Shown here one piece after another: positions 1,053 to 53,623 of a stretch of DNA of 64,000 nucleotides (position 1 is its first letter; each line of letters opens with the position of its first letter). The notes below the pieces were generated by a model. That model made no database searches, was not told the DNA's origin, and saw only the letters and a list, made by a program, of their open reading frames with translations. The stretch is from Pelomyxa schiedti (lineage: Eukaryota; Protista; Evosea). The position numbers and the translations under genes are program-made. The stretch spans positions 329,673 through 393,672 of the forward strand of contig JAHLWZ010000004.1 in assembly GCA_020536535.1 (NCBI GenBank), written 5' to 3'.

Positions 1053-1361
1053 TTTTCCGTCTGCTCACAAAGAAACCAAAGAAAAAAAGAGGTGCCGATG
1101 ACGGCAATGCCCTGCGGTGGATGGTTTGTTGTTTGATTTAAAATTACCTTTGATGCATTATTTTTCCTTCTTCGAATCTGCGCTGCAACTGCTAGAACCG
1201 GGTTCCTTTCTCGAAGGCAATTCGAGGGTCCTCTTCCGGGATCTTTTTTTCTTGCACCATCACCAGTTGGCTTCAGGATTGAAAGCCCTGCAAGGGCATC
1301 TTTCTCTGGCGCCCAGATCTTTTTCATTTTATTTTAATAAACGCCGTCTCAAATTGCCTGT
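1053..1361. promoter_or_regulatory. Divergent intergenic region between V-ATPase G (minus) and NCAPH2 (plus), likely a bidirectional promoter
   Basis: About 300 bp separate two head-to-head start codons at 1052 (minus) and 1362 (plus). No core promoter motif could be confirmed by eye. Confidence 0.35.
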
Positions 1362-3954: not shown

Positions 3955-4576
3955 ACAACGCTACGTCATTATTTAGTTGAAGAGTGAAAACTTTAAGATG
4001 ACCAACAAAGGGAGCCTGGAACTCTCTCTTCTTTCCCTGGAACCACTCTACGAGATCGAGAAGAAGGAGGAAGAAACCACAACACCTGAACCCCCCAGAC
4101 AAAAACAAACCAAGCCAAGAAAGCGCAAAGGCAAGAAAGATCAAGACTCTTGATACGCACATTCCAACCCTACCAATTGTAACAAGAGGATTTTAAAAAA
4201 CGGTTCTAGGGAACAAACAGGTGTTATTATGTCACAAGGATCACAAACAGAGAACACAACAAAAGGGTGATTGTAGAGAGCACCTGGCCATGAGAGTACG
4301 AGAGAGATGGATGGGTATCAGAGGAAGAGGGGCTAGAGCAGACAGTAGAAGCCGGTGTTTTTGTGGTTATACTGAAGGCGACTGGGGACTGGGTTCCGGG
4401 CTGAATAGTGTATGTGGAGGCACCAGGTCTATGTTTTAGTACTATGTCTAGGGAGGTGATTAGCGGAAGAAATGGAAGCAATGGGCAGGATACCTCCTGA
4501 AGCTAGGTAAGTGCCAGTGTAGTTTCTGTCTGGATCCCCCATTTCCGTCAAAAAGACTGTAGACGTTGATACAAGC

Positions 4577-32210: not shown

Positions 32211-34679
32211 TTGTGTGACATCCCAATGTCCCTTGTATATTATCCGGTGAGTCCGAAACAGTTAGAGATCCTCAGGATCGTCTCTATCTCACGAGTCCTG
32301 TGGCAGCACGTCATCCCCCGCGCCCTCGCGCCCCCTCCCATAATCAGCAAAACTCCCCCACGGCTGCTCGTCCCCACCCTGATCTACCCCGCGATCGCGG
32401 ATGCGGCCTCCCCCAGCGCCGCCGCCGCGCAAGTTGCCGCCGCCGCAAACAACACCGAGTGCGGGTGCGTGTCCCCGCACGCCGGAGATTGCCAGCCGTC
32501 GACATGCGACCCAAGCCCCGCGCTGGACGCGTACCACCGCGTCCTCGTGTGCGCCGGCGAGGCCCTGTTCCCGCTGCGAACCGTGTGCCTCCGCGCGCTA
32601 TTGGACGTCCTGTCTCGCGAGAACTTCTTCCCGCACGAGCAGGCGTTGATGTCTTTCGCGAGGAACGGGGCGCTGGCGATGGCCAAGGCGCTGATGGCGG
32701 AGTGGTACAGGTTGGCCCCCCCGCCTTCGCTTGCTCCTTCTTCGGTGAGAGTGTGCTCCGCCGCGGCTGCTGCTAGTGCTTGCGGCGATGCTAACGCCGA
32801 CACTATTGTGCTTATGCCGGCGCCGCCGCCGTGGTGCTATTCCTTTGGTGTCACGCCGTCGGTTGCAAAGGCTTTCGTTGTTAACTTGCTTGCGGCAAGT
32901 TGCCAAGCTGGGAGCGTTCCGTTTTCTGAATGGGTCATGTCCCTTCATGCAGATATGATTCCTCGCGCTGACCTTGTACAAATATTTAAGACTGCTGTTG
33001 CCTACCCAGAAATTTTGGATCTGTTGTGGGAGGAATTTTCCCCCTCATTGACATTGAAAGAAACTTTTGGAAACGCTGGGGCAGCAGGCACAGTTCTTCT
33101 GCAAAATATTGCAATCACACGAATTAATACTGTAAAATGGCTGTTATCTCATTTTGACATACCACTGCTCGAGATCCGCAAAGATCCTTCTTTCTCTTCG
33201 TATTTCACTCAATGTGCCCCTAGGCCGGATAGTGCCGCGTCCCTGCATTGGCTGATTGCCACATTCTGCACTAACCGCGATGTCGATGAATCAAACCTTC
33301 TGTCAGAAGCTTTGAAATGCGCTTGTCGTGGTGGAAATGTAACTTCTACAGAGATTATTATGTCTTTTCTATCAGCTGAAGCTGTACGTAAACTACCAAA
33401 ACACGACTGGGATGCAAAGTGCATTATCTGGGTATGTGAAAAAATCGGAGAGCCACTCCCCAGATCCGTTTTTGAGAAAAGCTGCTTGTTGGATAATGTT
33501 CCACTTGTTCAATCACTAGCAGTGATGCTGGCTATAACACCGCTGGAAGTAAGAGCAGAGAGACATCGGTTACTTATGTTAGTCCTTGGTTCAAAGAAAT
33601 TCCAGGTAGCTCAGTGGCTGCTTGATTACTATGGTATCATGAGAGGACAAGCGCCCTACGTACTGCGCCTAGTCTGCGGGGCGGGGAACGTCGATTTTGC
33701 ACAGTGGGTGACTACAAGGTTTAACTTCTCACGACGCGTGGTGCAGAACAACAAAAACCGTATCCTGCGGGCGTGTTGCCGTGACGGCCTTGCACCTATG
33801 GTTAAGTGGCTCGTTGTTCAATTTGCACTTACCATTCAAGATGCCCGAAGCTGTGACAATGGAGCCTTCAGGGCATGCATCGAAAGTGGACAGCTTCCTT
33901 TAGTGCAATGGTTAACAGACCACTTTAACCTAACGCCTGATGACGCGAGGAGCCGAAATAACTATGCCCTCTGGGTGGCCTCCTGGTGGAACCGCCTTGA
34001 TATTGTCAAGTGGCTTGTGGAGCGCTTCAATCTCACGGCAGAGGATGTCACTCAGTGCAAGAGTGGGCGTTCTGCTTTGTACAGTGTCCCGATTGATACC
34101 TGGCTGCAAGAAAAACTCAACATGGCTTCGGGCGCGCAAGTAGCAGCCGACTATTCCTTAGCTTTTCCAACTGCCGTTCAAGTGGCTGGGGCCCAATGGG
34201 CCGAAATCAGCAACTCGCTACTGACGAACTCCGGCAAGATGGGAGACGCCCAGCTGAGCGCGCTCCTAAACGGAGGTTACCGCCCATCAGTCGTCAAGTG
34301 GCTGATTCAAAGGACCGGCCTTGTAGAGCGATTCGCCGCCGCTACCGGCGAATTCCAGCCCGTTACGCAGCTAATACTCACTTCGTGGCACCCAAGCCTC
34401 GACCAACCGCGCTGGCTTGTTCTGCGGCTAGGAATTCAGCCCGGAGACCCGCGGATACCCGTTCCGACGTTACTCCGCGGCGCGGTTGGCAACAACAACT
34501 GGGGCGCTATGAAGTGGCTATGCGAGTGGTTCACTGTCCCTGTGGAGCAGGTGCAGGCTGCCATTGACCAGCACGCGAGGCAGTTCGGGTCCTGGAATTC
34601 CAAGGAACGCCAGGAGTTCCAACAATGGTACTACCAGAAAATGGGCGTCTCTCCACCCTCAAAGTGTTGTTTGCAATAG
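32211..34679 (+). CDS. Intronless 822-aa protein made of divergent ankyrin-like ~33-35-aa repeats
   Basis: A single uninterrupted ORF. The recurring unit is A.R.AC..G.L..V.WL...F.LT..D.RS.NN.A, for example NNYALWVASWWNRLDIVKWLVERFNLTAEDV, ACIESGQLPLVQWLTDHFNLTPDDARS, APMVKWLVVQFALTIQDARS and VAQWLLDYYGI. This aligns to the ankyrin consensus (x-L-x-x-A-x-x-G-x-L-x-V-V-x-x-L-L). The 5' 600 nt are GC-rich with Ala/Pro runs. Confidence 0.6.
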   Translation: MCDIPMSLVYYPVSPKQLEILRIVSISRVLWQHVIPRALAPPPIISKTPPRLLVPTLIYPAIADAASPSAAAAQVAAAANNTECGCVSPHAGDCQPSTCDPSPALDAYHRVLVCAGEALFPLRTVCLRALLDVLSRENFFPHEQALMSFARNGALAMAKALMAEWYRLAPPPSLAPSSVRVCSAAAAASACGDANADTIVLMPAPPPWCYSFGVTPSVAKAFVVNLLAASCQAGSVPFSEWVMSLHADMIPRADLVQIFKTAVAYPEILDLLWEEFSPSLTLKETFGNAGAAGTVLLQNIAITRINTVKWLLSHFDIPLLEIRKDPSFSSYFTQCAPRPDSAASLHWLIATFCTNRDVDESNLLSEALKCACRGGNVTSTEIIMSFLSAEAVRKLPKHDWDAKCIIWVCEKIGEPLPRSVFEKSCLLDNVPLVQSLAVMLAITPLEVRAERHRLLMLVLGSKKFQVAQWLLDYYGIMRGQAPYVLRLVCGAGNVDFAQWVTTRFNFSRRVVQNNKNRILRACCRDGLAPMVKWLVVQFALTIQDARSCDNGAFRACIESGQLPLVQWLTDHFNLTPDDARSRNNYALWVASWWNRLDIVKWLVERFNLTAEDVTQCKSGRSALYSVPIDTWLQEKLNMASGAQVAADYSLAFPTAVQVAGAQWAEISNSLLTNSGKMGDAQLSALLNGGYRPSVVKWLIQRTGLVERFAAATGEFQPVTQLILTSWHPSLDQPRWLVLRLGIQPGDPRIPVPTLLRGAVGNNNWGAMKWLCEWFTVPVEQVQAAIDQHARQFGSWNSKERQEFQQWYYQKMGVSPPSKCCLQ

Positions 34680-37188: not shown

Positions 37189-38974
<1,786 letters not shown>

Positions 38975-41590: not shown

Positions 41591-43282
41591 TTGTTGCACT
41601 TTTACCGGGTGTCGTTGCTTTACTTATTGCTGTTAATGCAGAAGAAGCAGTCACGCAACCAACCCAAGGAGGGATCTAGCACGCCTGCTACTGAGGCGAA
41701 AGATGCAACAAAAAGCGTTGATGCACGCTCCTCCAAGATTGATGGGGCCCGTAACCTGGTGTTCGTTTTGGGGCTCAATTACTTGATCACAACTTTCACT
41801 CTAAACTACCTCGCTGGGAGGAGAATCATTGATACAAGGCTACTGGTCACTGGCTTTTTGTCTGTGGATTTCCTAATACTGGTTGGTACTTCGAAACAAA
41901 AACTGCTCACAATCATAACACAAAAAAAAATCATCTGTTTAACGAAAATTCAAGGTTTGCTGGTTTTTGTTAGTGGAAATCTTCCTTTCATTCACTGCAT
42001 GGGGTTTGATTGCTATTTTTCAAATCCACAAGTTGCCCAAGTTTTGGTCAGGATTAATACACTACGGTCACTTGTCCATCCTCTTTGGAAGGTTTTTCCC
42101 CATATAACAATGTTATTATTCATTGTTTTAGTACAATGTACGTGTGTCTCTGCTGGAAGCTCGCATTTACCCCTCGTACTGCCGGATTTGTAGAAATGCT
42201 TGTTCTTTGCCTCAAAATGCACTCCTTTGTACACTATCACAGACACACGGTCCCCACTCCGTCCCCTCCTACTTTCTGGCAGTACTTCGAATATCTACTG
42301 TTTCCAACCCTCATTTATCAGCCGTCTTACCCAAGAACGAGCCACATTGACTGGCGCTATATGATACAGCAACTAGTTTTGTGCGTTGGCACTCTTACAG
42401 TTGAGTTGTGACTCTCTTCATTTTCTTGCTCACATTCACGAAGGTACTGTATGTGCTGACAACCGAAGTGATTGCGCCAGTGCTCGAACAAGCAATTGTA
42501 AGTCCTCCTTTGGAGAGTGTGATGAAATTGTTGATTCCATTCCTTCTTGGGTACTTGCTGATGTGGTTCATGGTTTTTGACATTATTTTAACTGGTATGC
42601 TTGAAGCCTTTTCTTGTTCTTTCCCACAAGTCACAGGGTTTGCTGAAATTTCCCGATTCAAACCAAGAGAGTTCTATCTCGATTGGTGGAATAGCACTAC
42701 CTTCTCAGAGTATAATCGCAGATGGAACAAGCCAGTCCACGAATGGCTCACCAAATACGTCTACATTGAAGTAAGTTGACGCATGCCTGTAAAAACCCAT
42801 CTTAATCCATCTCTCAGGTACAAAACAGTTGGGGTTGCTCCAAAATTGTGGCTGGGCTGTGCACTTTCTTTGTATCTGCTATTGCACATGAATTGTTCTT
42901 CATTGTCACTTTTCGTATTGTGAGAATGTACTGGTTGACTGTAAGCGTTTCAGCTAAAGTGTGAATTGTCTTATTTCCCAAAGCTTATGATGCTGCAAAT
43001 GCCACTGTATATTCTGGGAGAAGGCCTCCGGGACACAAAGCTTGGGAACTTTGTATGTTGCTTTTCTCCAAGAATGCTTCCGACTCAACAATATTGCAGA
43101 TTTTCTGGCAAGGCATTGTGATAGGTATTCCCATGCAAGTCGTTATGTACGCCCGTGAAGCATTTGGCGGCTATTCCATGTTTTGGACTCTTCAATTCCC
43201 ATGCATTTGCATTGCTAGTTCAGCCGCTTTACTGGGAGGAGTTTTGATGCTGTTCTCAAACAACCACAAAAAACGAGTGTAA
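41591..43282 (+). CDS. MBOAT acyltransferase of the ACAT/DGAT1 family (sterol O-acyltransferase-like), multi-exon
   Basis: The sequence contains ..[46 protein letters not shown].. and the family signature [42 protein letters not shown] (compare ACAT/DGAT1 FYRDWWNS.S...Y.R.WN.PVH.W). There are multiple hydrophobic TM segments. Confidence 0.75.
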
Positions 43283-43649
43283 GCAAATAGTAAAAGAATT
43301 CAAAAAAAAAAAAACTCAAAATTTTTGTTTCCAAATATTTGTATCGAGGTCTGTCTCTTTTTGTCCAGGGGATTGGCCTCACAATCATGTCTCACTCTCC
43401 ACCATAAACCACCCATTTGATTGGACCCACAGTAATTCCTTTGAACTGCAAAGAAAGGAGATGACTGACAGGTACAAGGTAAATGGGGGTATCTCTGCCT
43501 ATCTGATACATCAGCCACAACGCGAACTGCTAAAGTGCATTTATAGCGCCGTGCGTCACACAGAAAGCAGAGTACAGTCGATAGTGACCCAATCATGCTT
43601 GGCAAAGGCTGTGACTATGGAGACAGCTTGATTCTACCATTAGGACACT

Positions 43650-45208
43650 TCAACAATGGTAACATTTGTCCTGATTGTTGCGCGAGGGACAGCGGAGGAA
43701 ACGACCTGTTGGAGAGAAAGTGAGTACTTGAGGGACAATCACTGAACCATCTAGTACCTCTCCGACAATCCAGGCAGGATAGCCATCTATTGCCTGTAAC
43801 TCCGAGCACATGGCTTGCGCTGCTGCAAGCGACGGTAGGCAAACGAGAAGTCCTCCAGAGGTCTCTGCTGATACTCCAACAAGGAGCCCAAAGTCGTAGG
43901 CATCATTTACGCGAGCCATGCCAGCTATCACAGGTAGCGTGTGGATTTCAATGGAACAGGGAGTGGTCTGCTCCTTAGCCTTCCATTTTGTTAGTTTTTA
44001 GTTGGTATGGAGGAGGAAGCACACGAGATTTTGAGAATGGCCAAGTATGCCAAACCCTGTCACATCTGTTGCTGCATGAGCTCCTGAAATTCGTTAGATG
44101 CAGCAATTGGTGGTGTCCCTACCATATTTGTGCATTAGCTCTGCGCCTGTCTTATTCAATCTAGACATGTTGGCTGCAGCAAGATTGTAAGCTCGTGTCA
44201 CCTCTTCGGGAGTGATGATCCCTTTGATCTCGTCCCACATTCCAGGAGTATTTGGCTTCTGTGCACACATCCATTGATGTGCGTTAACTGCTAACTGCGT
44301 ACCCAGAGGTTTTGTGAGAATAACGATGTCCCCAGCAACAGCATGTATTGGTCTATTATGAAGTCAGAGAGTCCCAATTCAAAAGAAGATACCGTATTAT
44401 TCCACTATCTGGCTGAACGGACATTGCAACACCACCAATGATGGGCCTTTTGTTGGTTGAAAGGTTATTTTGTGAGTATATGAGTTATATACCAGGGATT
44501 TCGGACGCTTTGTCCTCCAGTTACCATGGTCCCTGCCTTTCGAGCAAGGTCTTGAGAAAATCAATTCACTGGAAGAAGATAATATCGGGAAAACCTGTGA
44601 AACCCTTCATCATCTGTGTTGTAACTATTCTTCGGTGAGCAGGAGAAGGAATTTCCTCGGAGGATGCAAGTAGCATTAACATAGTATCACATCGAGTAAT
44701 GCCCATACTGTACAAGTCCGACAACACATTGGCACACCCAATCATGCCCTGAAAGGAAAAGTTAGGTGCCCACCTCCAATTCCAGAAAAAAAATAGGGTA
44801 TCAGACTTGAACATAGGGATCATCAATTACAGGATAGAAAAACTGCAAGGAGGTCAAAGGGCTCAAAAAAAAAAAAAAAAAAAAAAAAGCTCAAACAACT
44901 CACATCGGTAGTTGAAACCAAAAAGGTCCCGGGGGTAAATGTCTCCACAACAGAGCAATCTGATATCAAGGCAGCCTCGCACGCGGAAGGGGTCGTCGTC
45001 TCACTCGTGAACACAGTTTCTTTGAGCAACTGATGCAGTTCTGACTGGGGTATCTTACACCCTGTTCCCACGGTCATTCACCCGTCCCATAACGAATACG
45101 CGGGGAAAAAACAGCGAGCGAGTCACCTCATCCTTTAAGCCTCGTGTAGTCCGTCAACTTAAACGTATCCGGCAGCCCGTAGGCAGACGGCGGCTGAATC
45201 TGTGCCAT
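43650..45208 (-). CDS. Selenophosphate synthetase (SelD/SPS2-type) with an in-frame TGA selenocysteine codon at 45130..45128; multi-exon
   Basis: Exon 1 (45208..45127) encodes MAQIQPPSAYGLPDTFKLTDYTRLKG-TGA-g. After a roughly 64-nt GTGACT..AACAG intron, exon 2 continues GCKIPQSELHQLLKETV... This rebuilds the SPS2 active-site motif KG-U-GCK(V/I)PQ. Later exons encode ..GMIGCANVLSDLYSMGITRCDTMLMLLASSEE..MMKGF.. and ..GLLVGVSAETSGGLLVCLPSLAAAQAMCSELQAIDGYPAWIVGE | ..TNVTIVEVS*, matching the SelD/SPS C-terminal region. EF-1alpha in the same window ends with TGA as a stop, so the standard code is in use. Confidence 0.7.
44865..44888 (+). repeat. (A)24 homopolymer inside a SelD intron
   Basis: A run of 24 A on the plus strand (poly-T in the minus-strand transcript) lies between SelD exons. 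Confidence 0.9.
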
Positions 45209-47136
45209 TACAACAAAAGCACCGAAACTTTTTACTACTTTTGAAATTTCGCTTCTTCAACTTCTTGTATCTCAGAATCAGCAGTACGGTACTTCCATAC
45301 AGTTTGTTGGTCACCCTAACTGCTACTATCCATAGGTTGTGCTACTCAACCCTTATAACGCTCTCTCATACCCGCCAAGCAAAGAAGTGACACCTGTGTG
45401 GACATCAGAGAACCCCAGCCCGCACGACCTGTCGTTGGGTGGCACCCAATGCAGTAGCTAGCTGACCCCTCAGCTAAAGAGAAAGAAACCACCTGTGATG
45501 GCCACAATTCACATTCACATTCACACAAGCCCAAGCAAGATTCAATATGTGAATTGTTGTATATCTGCATCTCAGAGAGGGGCCACACTAAAGTCACCAC
45601 CACGAATTGGCTATGCAAATCACCCAACAACAGAATCAACAGGTCTGGTTAGCACTCCCCACCAGGTGTATCTTGCTTTAGTGCTCATCAATATCACTCA
45701 AATGCAAAATGAATAGTAACAATAATGACAATGCTGGCAACCAGAAATGAAATTGGTGTGGCAACAAGCATTTCACATGTCCATGATTAATAAACAAAGC
45801 ATGCTTGGCACCCAATTGAGTCTCAAAAGCTTTCTCCCACTGTGACCATCATCACACAGCACCACCAAACAGCCAGACACCACACTAGCACCCCAACACC
45901 CTTGCTTTCAACAACTAATAGTAACTTAAGGATGCCAAAAGCAACAACACAAAAAAAAACCAAGACACAATAACAAGAACACATGTGTTGTAGTGTACTT
46001 CAAAATCGAATCAGTGTCGACGTGGAAAAGCAACTGTGATCTATCTATATTGACTAGCTCCCCTCCGCATTCTGCTGTCTCCGCTAGTGCTACGACTTGG
46101 TTGGTTTTCTGCCTGGGTGTGTGGTGGGCTGTGATGTGATGATTATGGGAGCTATTAGGGCTTTCTATTTTATGCGGCTATTCTTATGGTAATGATAATA
46201 TGCTTTCAATTTAATCAATTAATGCTCATTAACTACTCCAGATGTTAGTGGGTCTATGTGTGTTACGAGTGAGGTTCCAACAACGAGAAGAGGGAAGTCA
46301 AAGTATGTTTCAAGGCTGGAGTGCGGGCAGCAAGCAGTTACTTCACAATTGGTTGCACTGGCTTCCGCTAATAAAAACTGCAGGGTCGAGCTAGGTATAC
46401 CTCCTTGCCACCATAAATACCACTTAAGATCCATCCGCACTTGACAAGTGCAGTCACTTTTAGTGATGACGTGAGCATTTTTGGTGATGGAACAAATACC
46501 TGTGTTACTGTTGCTGGGGATAAGCTTAATGACTGGGATCAGAAAGTAATAAAATCCCCACTGTCTTAGTTCCAATCGTAGAAATCTGGGTTCACAGTCA
46601 GCCTCCTCATAGCATCATCCTCCTCTTTTTGTTTTTGTAGTATAAATGCAAATTAAATGTGTTGCCAAACAACTAGGGAAAACTTTGTAACTATCAATTG
46701 TTAGCTGCCCCCATACTAGTTGCCTCTCTGATATAATAGCCCGCTGGTGATCTCACTCAAAATTAGATACCACTTTATTGAACACAACCACACATTGAAG
46801 TGGCAACAAACAGTTTTACTGTGTACTGTTGGGTTGAATTTGCTTATTTACTATCAAGACACACAGCCCAGTCTCAGAGTTGTCGTCAAATAGCACTTGC
46901 CTCAAAATGGTGCCGCTACAAAGCTAACCAGCAACAACACTCCAACTTGGTGCTGGACTGTCATGGCACTCTAATTGCACCCAAGGAATTATGGTTGAAC
47001 TTCTAGAATAACATTCATTAGGTAAGAGCCTTAACCAACCTCTGGCCACACTGTCAGCATACCCTTCTAATTGTTTGTAAAAAGAAGAATCAAGACGCAG
47101 TTTAACGCCATGTGCATTGGCAATATTTTGGGTCAT

Positions 47137-51561: not shown

Positions 51562-51848
51562 ATTGTACCCCTTTATTTTGTTTTTCTTTTGTGGGAATTG
51601 GTGGGTATCGTGAGGGTATGTTGCTTCAATTTCTGTATTGTAGTCTTCTTTTGCGTGCGTACGGAAAAGAGGACAATGAGAGTGGAACAGTTGCGATTTG
51701 ATATCAATTAACTTCTTTATAAATCTTCGGCCGGAAGTTTTGGCAAAACGAAAAAAGTACCGCAAGTACGAAGCCAACAACGATCGGTATAGCAAACCCG
51801 AACCCCCCCTTTTTTCCGTTTCCCGTGCACTGAGCCACTTCACAACAA

Positions 51849-53623
51849 AGATGGATAAGTCACACAAGTCACTTCCACATGATGTGCTCTGGCGCTGCAT
51901 GCTGACTGGAAGGGGTGCTGGGAGAACACACCCGCGTGCCTTTGAGTGCCACTTCCGTGTTGGTCAGCGGGAACCAAGGGGAATTTCTCTCTTCCAGTCG
52001 ATGGCCGAGGACCAGCACGATCCCAAAATGCTCTGGATGCTTGGGGAGTTCTACCTGCGGGGGCAGGGAACAGACCCTGACCCAATCAAGGGCCTGCAGT
52101 ACTTATACAAGGCCGCGGATGCCGGCAGTGTTCCTGCATTATGGGCCATATCCCAGTGCTACTTCACCGGCATGTACGGAATCGAGAAAGATTACGCCAA
52201 ATCTGTTCCTTTTCTCCAGCGCGGAGCTGATGCCGGAGATCCGGATGCGCTGTATATTCTTGGAAACTGCTTCTTGGGCGGAATGGGAGTGGCTGAAGAT
52301 CATAGCAAAGCGGCTGCTTTATTTCAGAAAGCTGCCGATCTTGGACTTCCTGAGGCATGCGTGGATCTTGGAAAACTTTACCTTCAGGGTAAAGGCGTTC
52401 CGGTTGATGAGAGAAAGGCCTTTCCTCTTTTGCAGAGGGTTGTAAATGATCCCAAGGTTGGATGGGAGGCTCAGCTCAATCTCTGTGACTTCTACTTGTA
52501 TGGTATGGAAGGAGTGCAACGGGACGTGCAGAAAGGTCTGTTGTATTTGCAGAAAGCTGTTCAGAAAGGCGATCCAGAAGGTTTATTTCGCCTGGGCCAA
52601 TGTTACAACGTTGGAGTTGGAGTCGAGAGAGATATCAAAAAGGCAGTAGAGCTTTTTCAGCGGTCTGTGGAAGGTGGTTGTGCTACCGCAATGTACAGCC
52701 TCAGCGAGCACTACCTGAAGGGTGATTGCGTTCCACGTGACCCAGTAAAAGCTATTTCACTTCTGCAGAATTCTGTTGAGATGAACGATCGACAAGGATT
52801 ATGGCGCCTCGGCAGATGTTATGACACTGGAGAAGGAGTCACGAAAGATGTAAGAAAGGCAGTTGAACTTTACCAGAGGTCTGTGGGACGTGGTTGCGTA
52901 TTAGCAATGTACAACCTCAGCAAGCACTACATGAGCGGCGAAGGCGTTACATTTGACCCTGAACAAGCAGTCTCGCTTCTAGAGAGAGCTTCAGAACATG
53001 GATACACTCCGGCAATGTGTAAACTTGCTCACTATTACAAGGAGGGAAAGGGAGTTGATGTGGATATTGGGAGGGCAATTTCGCTCTTGAATAAGGCCGC
53101 TGACGCCGGATATATTAAAGCAATGAACGAACTCAGTGTCAATTACAGCTTGGGACAAGGTATTCCCATTGACATGAATCGCGCCGCTTCGCTGATTCAA
53201 AGAGCATACGATATGGGGAGCAATGAGGCCGCAATCGCACTTGGATGGGGTCTGTTGATGGGTGCTTACGACATGACACGCAACGTCCAAAGAGCCATTC
53301 CAATCCTGAAGAAAGCATCTGAAGAGTCATCTGATGCCAAAACCATGTTGGCAATGTGCTATGAATGTGGCGTGGGCGTGGCCAAAGACATGAACATGGC
53401 CAACTCCCTCTTCCAACAAGTCATTGACAAGGGCTACACAGAGGCTATCTTCAAGGTTGGTGCATACTTAGAATCCGGTGCCTTGCATGGGCCAAAAGAC
53501 ATCGCCAGAGCGTTTCAACTTTACAGAAGGGCTGCTTGTGCTGGAGACCAAAGGGCACAGGCCAGGTTTTCTTCACTCTTGAGCTTGTGCTTGAACGTGT
53601 TTGAGGAGCTTTCGAGTACGTAG
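51849..53623 (+). CDS. Intronless Sel1-like repeat (SLR/TPR-like) protein with about 15 repeats
   Basis: An uninterrupted ORF runs from MDKSHKSLPHDVLW.. to a stop at 53623. Repeated ~36-aa units have the Sel1 signature, for example LGEFYLRGQGTDPDPIKGLQYLYKAADAG, LGNCFLGGMGVAEDHSKAAALFQKAADLG, LGKLYLQGKGVPVDERKAFPLLQRV, LGQCYNVGVGVERDIKKAVELFQRSVEGG and LGRCYDTGEGVTKDVRKAVELYQRS. No signal peptide or TM segment is present. Confidence 0.7.

Follow-up and report, generated by a model that had tools for sequence, protein, structure and literature searches.

A gene on the minus strand of a 64,000-nucleotide (nt) stretch of DNA from the protist Pelomyxa schiedti (contig JAHLWZ010000004.1, positions 329,673 to 393,672), referred to here as the window, has a TGA in its reading frame 26 codons after the start and one base before an intron. 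The gene resembles those for selenophosphate synthetase (the SelD family), and this raises the question of whether the TGA ends translation or encodes selenocysteine (Sec). The evidence makes it highly probable that the locus is an SPS2 selenoprotein gene in which UGA specifies Sec at the active site, the recoding being driven by a putative selenocysteine insertion sequence (SECIS) element in the 3′ untranslated region (UTR). All coordinates are positions of the window.

The gene model was built by extension with canonical GT..AG introns and has ten exons. Its features, together with an overlapping open reading frame (ORF) from a mechanical scan, are as follows.

45127..45208, minus strand: SPS2 exon 1, 82 nt, comprising the ATG, 26 codons, the TGA and one base (phase-1 junction)
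45130..45128, minus strand: in-frame TGA, putative Sec codon, residue 27, placed by alignment to homologues and by the TGA of relatives
45062..45126, minus strand: intron 1, 65 nt, with donor GTGACT from 45126 and acceptor ..GAACAG ending at 45062
44904..45061, minus strand: exon 2, beginning (G)GCKIPQSELHQLL...
44842-44807, 44748-44595, 44550-44493 and 44446-44393, minus strand: exons 3-6
44352-44123, 44083-44025, 43979-43758 and 43705-43640, minus strand: exons 7-10
43642..43640, minus strand: TAA stop, at the end of exon 10
44823..45077, minus strand: ORF MTVGTGCKIPQ..., from the ORF list

A stop codon in the same frame lies 16 codons before the start codon (45208..45206), and the interval between them contains no ATG. 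The 26 codons that separate the ATG from the TGA read MAQIQPPSAYGLPDTFKLTDYTRLKG, and exon 1 ends ...RLKG-TGA-g, the last base being the g at 45127. Exon 2 opens at 45061 with GG TGT AAG ATA CCC CAG, and the spliced reading is ...LKG-U-G-C-K-I-P-Q. The spliced coding sequence is 1119 nt long, or 372 codons and a stop, and contains no other stop or frameshift. Introns are 39-65 nt in length over the whole model and 39-61 nt around exons 3-10; the total of nine is in keeping with the 7.4 introns per gene reported for P. schiedti (PMC8887013). Intron 2 has a run of 24 T residues on the coding strand (44865..44888), which is the longest homopolymer in the window.

A preliminary description of this DNA had placed the TGA at an exon-intron junction, ...RLKG-TGA-g|GTGACT, and the model agrees with this to the base. 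It had also proposed that GCKIPQ is restored when an intron of about 64 nt is removed; the restored reading stands, and the intron length is corrected to 65 nt. The description warned that an ORF scan would yield an unrelated ORF beginning MTVGTGCK. That ORF is indeed in the list, and it is an artefact: it starts at an ATG inside intron 1, runs through exon 2 and ends in intron 2.

Does the protein that is read through the TGA belong to the SelD family along its whole length? The model scores 234.8 bits against the SelD equivalog TIGR00476, for which the cut-off is 125. Two further SelD models, from prokaryotic lineages, remain under their cut-offs (226 vs 291 and 148 vs 299 bits). The Pfam domains AIRS (PF00586, 49.2 bits) and AIRS_C (PF02769, 52.4 bits) are both over cut-off and give the PurM-like two-domain architecture. 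Among solved structures the best matches are SPS2 of Leishmania major (5l16, 2e-104) and human SEPHS1 (3fd5, 7e-101). Both alignments begin at residue 7, which is upstream of the TGA, pass through the TGA position and are unbroken at the exon junctions. The comparison with SPS1 and SPS2 proteins that had been suggested in the preliminary description places the TGA in a column held by Cys in Leishmania SPS2 (LKGCSCKLPQ) and by Thr in human SEPHS1 (LKGTGCKVPQ). The catalytic loop LKG-U-GCKIPQ aligns column for column with both structures, including G-C-K with the catalytic Lys. Judged by these alignments, the gene is a SelD homologue of the SPS2 (Sec/Cys) type, with the TGA at the Sec/Cys position of G-[U/C]-G-C-K-[IV]-P-Q.

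Eleven relatives (L001-L011) were compared with the Pelomyxa gene: eight transcript contigs (L001-L008), a genomic sequence of Balamuthia mandrillaris (L009; GCA_031835245.2) and two further sequences, L010 and L011. When the N-terminal peptide of L001 was used in a tblastn search of the window, exon 1 was the sole match (E = 3e-6). This match and the structural alignments that start at residue 7 argue that exon 1 is coding. Alternatively, the product could be truncated at its N-terminus, with translation initiated beyond the TGA, either at Met-94 or at the ATG of MTVGTGCK within intron 1, and with exon 1 untranslated or missing from the mRNA. ORF scans and gene predictors do give models of this type, here and in relatives. 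However, the 26 residues before the TGA are homologous to SPS N-termini, a truncated product would lose the part of the catalytic loop that is conserved as LTDYTRLKG-U, and the MTVG start lies inside a canonical GT..AG intron. A truncated product is therefore regarded as highly improbable.

The TGA is found at the same codon in all eleven relatives. The transcript contigs read LKG*GCK[IV]PQ, and the called ORF in each begins just after the TGA. With L010 and L011 added, which have no intron at that site, the motif LKG*[GA]CK[IV]PQ is uninterrupted in ten of the sequences. Balamuthia, in which the Sec region of SPS2 is at 2790..2920 of L009, has LKG*G, an intron and then CKVPQ (TGA GG|GTACCC...ATAAAG|G TGC AAG). 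Most of the top protein matches cover only about 80% of the query (300-330 amino acids, aa), and L001-L008 come from the transcript contigs behind these matches. The homologues from oomycetes extend over the full length, with Cys in place of Sec.

The conservation of the TGA bears on the proposal that the gene is a pseudogene, or that the TGA is a nonsense mutation or a miscall of a Cys codon, TGT or TGC. The assembly is from amplified single cells (PMC8887013), and errors are possible. Yet the same change would have to be present at the exact codon in eleven independent relatives; in addition, the other 371 codons are intact over ten exons, and a SECIS-like element is present. A defective gene or an erroneous sequence is exceedingly unlikely.

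The mis-annotation at the N-terminus that the preliminary description had foreseen is seen in relatives. The NCBI model of Balamuthia, P0082, begins MDCSII, downstream of the Sec site, and is N-terminally truncated. The EukProt model of Mastigamoeba balamuthi, P0009 (m51a1_g8030), reads MSVTKPPEEDEVRCKIPQ, where an unrelated N-terminus, MSVTKPPEEDEV, is joined to R-CKIPQ. Apparently a wrong upstream exon has been placed on the same phase-1 acceptor, which gives Arg (C|GC) instead of Gly (G|GC). This suggests that the gene model passed over the exon with the Sec UGA, and that Mastigamoeba shares the phase-1 intron.

Two minor features of the relatives can be mentioned. In L010 (3964 nt) a gene for V-ATPase subunit H lies upstream of SPS2; L011 is 3520 nt in length. 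The 3′ UTR of L001, the closest of the transcript relatives, contains at 1185..1300 a perfect 15-nt inverted repeat, GCAUGUUAACACAGG...CCUGUGUUAACAUGC, which may form a long hairpin or have arisen during assembly.

A further question is whether UGA is a stop codon in this organism at all. The gene for EF-1alpha is informative in this respect.

37189..38974, minus strand: EF-1alpha gene, by match to the Pelomyxa schiedti GenBank protein P0133

The encoded protein is 98% identical to P0133 over its full length, and the differences are found only at two exon junctions of the model. Its last residues, ...KAPGKRGK, precede a TGA and coincide with the C-terminus annotated in GenBank. TGA likewise terminates six of the window's 12 long ORFs, and it is the terminator in two of the eight transcript contigs of relatives. 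Since TGA ends EF-1alpha and half of the long ORFs, UGA is a normal stop codon and the UGA of SPS2 represents recoding, in agreement with what the preliminary description had drawn from EF-1alpha. A variant genetic code, with UGA a sense codon for Trp or Cys throughout, would be at odds with these terminators, that of EF-1alpha falling exactly at the annotated C-terminus, and also with the finding of no other in-frame TGA in the SPS2 model; it can be given hardly any credence.

If the UGA is recoded as Sec, a SECIS element is expected in the 3′ UTR. The preliminary description found no convincing fold there and doubted two AUGA sites that it had considered. The doubt about the AUGA sites, at 43596 and 43388, is borne out, as neither Rfam nor the scanner described below picks them up. 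A candidate is present nevertheless; it had been missed because its core is GUGA and not AUGA.

43571..43494, minus strand: candidate form-2 SECIS element, by Rfam SECIS_1, folding and a pattern-plus-energy scan

This segment folds as a long stem-loop without constraints. Helix I has 11 base pairs (bp) and one bulge and leads to the 5′ core, GUGA (43559..43556), which starts 80 nt past the TAA stop. Helix II consists of 8-10 bp. After it come an unpaired UAUAAA, of which the AAA occupies 43542..43540, a 3-bp mini-helix and, at 43513..43511, the UGA of the 3′ core. The candidate thus shows the structural hallmarks of a SECIS element, namely helix I, the quartet [A/G]UGA...GA, no fewer than 8 bp in helix II, and an unpaired AA 10-13 nt past the core.

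Two kinds of search bear on the significance of this structure. At gathering thresholds Rfam has no match in the whole window. With permissive settings over 42600..43800, SECIS_1 gives the sole relevant match, over minus-strand positions 43567..43499 and 73 nt past the stop (18 bits, E = 2.7). It should be pointed out that this E-value spans 4227 families, and that the value for a single family, as given by the prior hypothesis, is about 6e-4. The other search was by a scanner of our own, which looks for [AG]UGA...GA, for 8 bp or more in helix II and for an unpaired AA 9-14 nt past the core, and adds the duplex energy of helix I. On both strands of the window (128 kb) it gave nine candidates, and 43571..43494 was ranked first with a combined energy of -30.1. 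When the window was shuffled 24 times with its dinucleotide composition preserved (3.07 Mb in all), a single candidate as good was found. The chance expectation is about 1e-4 for the 357-nt interval from the SPS2 stop to the end of a convergent gene of the MBOAT family. The second-ranking example, 45081..44999 (minus strand, energy -29.8), covers the end of intron 1 and part of exon 2, and was judged to be a chance product of local GC-rich complementarity. It requires intron-1 sequence, has a long inner region, and there is no Rfam match in 43640..45400.

SECIS-like elements of the form [A/G]UGA-N10-14-AA also occur in the 3′ UTRs of L005, L006, L007, L009, L010 and L011. That of Balamuthia (L009) has an AUGA core and is at 4480..4540. 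Two of the closest relatives, L002 and L003, have GUGA-N12-14-AA, and their contigs end there. The apical parts of the relatives' elements are too variable for a reliable MAFFT alignment. When the UTRs of relatives were searched with Rfam, only L007 was reported, with 30.4 bits, which is under the gathering score; L005 and L006 were not reported. This shows that sparse Rfam matches in the relatives stem from low sensitivity of the model and not from absence of SECIS elements, and a low Rfam score is therefore to be expected for these protists.

Several observations weigh against a Sec-encoding SPS2 in Pelomyxa. The candidate reaches 18 bits with SECIS_1, below the 35 that Rfam sets for gathering, the stem-loop has a folding-energy z-score of only -1.54, and the Pelomyxa candidate is a single one with no second to compare. 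ARAGORN finds no tRNA gene in the window. A collection of 5.8 billion proteins holds no SPS protein from Pelomyxa; the top identity is 62%, and no near-identical protein is present. Lastly, the genome papers on Pelomyxa and Mastigamoeba contain no word starting with ‘selen’. As for genes of the Sec machinery among the long ORFs of the window, a Pfam scan gave only AAA, ankyrin, Sel1-repeat and LNR domains.

The low SECIS score leads to another alternative, i.e. UGA readthrough that is independent of a SECIS element in an organism without selenoproteins. It would be analogous to the SPS1-UGA genes that Mariotti and colleagues are said to have described in Hymenoptera. Besides the score being under the Rfam gathering value, it can be said for this proposal that non-Sec SPS paralogues are a recurrent theme (Mariotti et al., 2015; PMC4561486). 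On the other hand, the 3′ UTR has a structurally complete SECIS-like element for which the number expected by chance is about 1e-4, SECIS-like elements accompany this UGA in relatives too, and the gene keeps the full G-U-G-C-K catalytic loop that is typical of a functional SPS2. Readthrough of this type is very unlikely. All four alternatives considered, that is, readthrough, a truncated product, a defective or miscalled gene and a variant code, are contradicted by evidence. The SECIS element at 43571..43494 itself may be regarded as supported by computation but not proven.

The 357 nt that separate the stops of SPS2 and its neighbour mean that the two 3′ UTRs may overlap. The neighbouring gene encodes an acyltransferase of the MBOAT family (Pfam PF03062) and is at 42408..43282 on the plus strand. 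Its product contains FYLDWWN, which we take to be a motif of the DGAT1/ACAT type.

How would the recoding function? The mechanism is most likely the standard, textbook one of eukaryotic Sec recoding. The locus would be the single SPS2 gene of P. schiedti and would itself encode a selenoprotein. Splicing of intron 1 would join ...AAA GGA UGA G to GG UGU AAG AUA CCC CAG and form the glycine-rich catalytic loop K-G-U-G-C-K-I-P-Q, and the UGA at codon 27 would be decoded as Sec and not as a stop. The putative kink-turn SECIS element, with its GUGA...AAA...UGA core, would recruit the SECIS-binding protein SBP2, and eEFSec with Sec-tRNA. The SPS2 product is predicted to make selenophosphate, the selenium donor for Sec synthesis, and the pathway would thus rely on its own product. 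Eight further exon junctions are found downstream of the UGA junction. A UGA read as a stop would mark the mRNA for nonsense-mediated decay, if that pathway functions as in mammals. Of this account, the exon structure, the homology on either side of the UGA, its conservation among relatives and the use of UGA as a terminator in other genes are established, and splicing at the level of RNA, incorporation of Sec and the trans-acting factors are inferred.

A UGA that lies only one base away from a splice junction invites speculation about the role of this arrangement. In ascidians, an intron beside the Sec codon permits Sec and non-Sec isoforms via alternative first exons. An alternative non-Sec first exon like that of Ciona SPS was looked for in the window by tblastn with three N-terminal peptides, and these match exon 1 only. 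As far as can be judged from sequence comparison, a functionally special role of the junction is not demonstrable: the Balamuthia intron is in the same codon, and L010 and L011 have none.

The spliced mRNA right after the UGA (45127 plus 45061..45047) could form a 6-bp hairpin, GGGUGU-AAG-AUACCC, of which the first G is from exon 1. No claim is made for it as a redefinition element; in L001 and L002 the Gly (GGN)...Pro (CCN) codons pair over only about 3 bp, by eye. The hairpin is probably a by-product of coding.

With respect to known systems, Sec-type SPS2 genes have a scattered distribution in Amoebozoa (PMC4561486), and the SPS2 of Dictyostelium is a confirmed selenoprotein. SECIS elements of Dictyostelium are of type II and have an AAA bulge (PMC2375036), and the Pelomyxa candidate, also of type II with an unpaired AAA, resembles them. 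The Pelomyxa gene further shares with Dictyostelium SPS2 and human SEPHS2 the SelD family, the Sec position in G-U-G-C-K-[VI]-P-Q and a SECIS element, here a candidate, in the 3′ UTR. It differs from both in the GUGA core in place of AUGA, and in its host, an anaerobic archamoeba. In addition, Pelomyxa SPS2 is interrupted by nine short introns, the first of which lies 1 nt past the UGA, whereas human SEPHS2 is intronless (PMC4561486).

Leishmania SPS2 (5l16) and the SPS2 proteins of oomycetes, the latter being the best full-length database matches, have almost the same N-terminal segment, LTDYTRLKG-x-[GS]CK[IL]PQ. Both have Cys where Pelomyxa has UGA, and because of the Cys they need no SECIS element. 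SECIS elements of the GUGA_AA type have been described in Chlamydomonas, Ostreococcus and the sponge Amphimedon (PMC3473315). As in Pelomyxa, a G precedes the UGA and AA(A) is found 11-13 nt downstream; unlike the green algae and the sponge, Pelomyxa belongs to Amoebozoa. A single such element is seen in the Pelomyxa window, and GUGA also appears in the truncated 3′ UTRs of L002 and L003. Balamuthia SPS2 has in common with Pelomyxa the in-frame TGA, an intron in the Gly codon after Sec and a SECIS-like 3′ element. The Pelomyxa intron is one base earlier, TGA G|GT (phase 1) as against TGA GG|GT (phase 2), and the core is GUGA as against AUGA.

Neither a Sec-type SPS2 in an amoebozoan nor a SECIS element with GUGA is new, and the P. 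schiedti gene is an ordinary SPS2 gene that has so far been unannotated. The Archamoebae are anaerobic amoebae with reduced mitochondria. In the library that was searched, no paper was found that links Archamoebae with selenoproteins, and the two that name both Pelomyxa and selenocysteine leave them unconnected. Perhaps, then, the locus provides the first evidence that Archamoebae keep Sec decoding, with a GUGA-type SECIS element and an old intron beside the Sec codon that is shared with Balamuthia to within one base; this is put forward tentatively, at somewhat less than an even chance.

SPS2 is a genomic marker of Sec use (PMC4561486), and P. schiedti is therefore predicted to have a selenoproteome and the machinery to produce it; the preliminary description had reasonably made the same prediction of a full Sec machinery. 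The prediction concerns an anaerobic, methanogen-bearing amoeba, and selenium goes unmentioned in the genome papers on Pelomyxa and Mastigamoeba. It also points to a failure of routine annotation. The public proteins of the species do not include SPS2, the model for Balamuthia is truncated and that for Mastigamoeba is mis-joined, and metabolic reconstructions of these organisms will consequently miss selenium use.

Other features of the window are unrelated to SPS2. EF-1alpha has a C-terminal extension of about 60-70 aa, rich in Ala, Thr, Pro, Gly and Lys (37189..37420, minus strand), which is present in P0133 as well and reaches past what is presumably the usual end of the protein. P0133 has ten extra residues from a 30-nt micro-exon at about 38540..38569 (minus strand), between the modelled exons 1 and 2; we assume that EF-1alpha sequences are normally without this insertion, and the micro-exon may belong to a minor isoform or result from faulty annotation. 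There are also two large intron-free ORFs on the plus strand, at 51698..53623 and 32211..34679, of which one has ten Sel1/TPR repeats and the other encodes 822 aa with ankyrin repeats.

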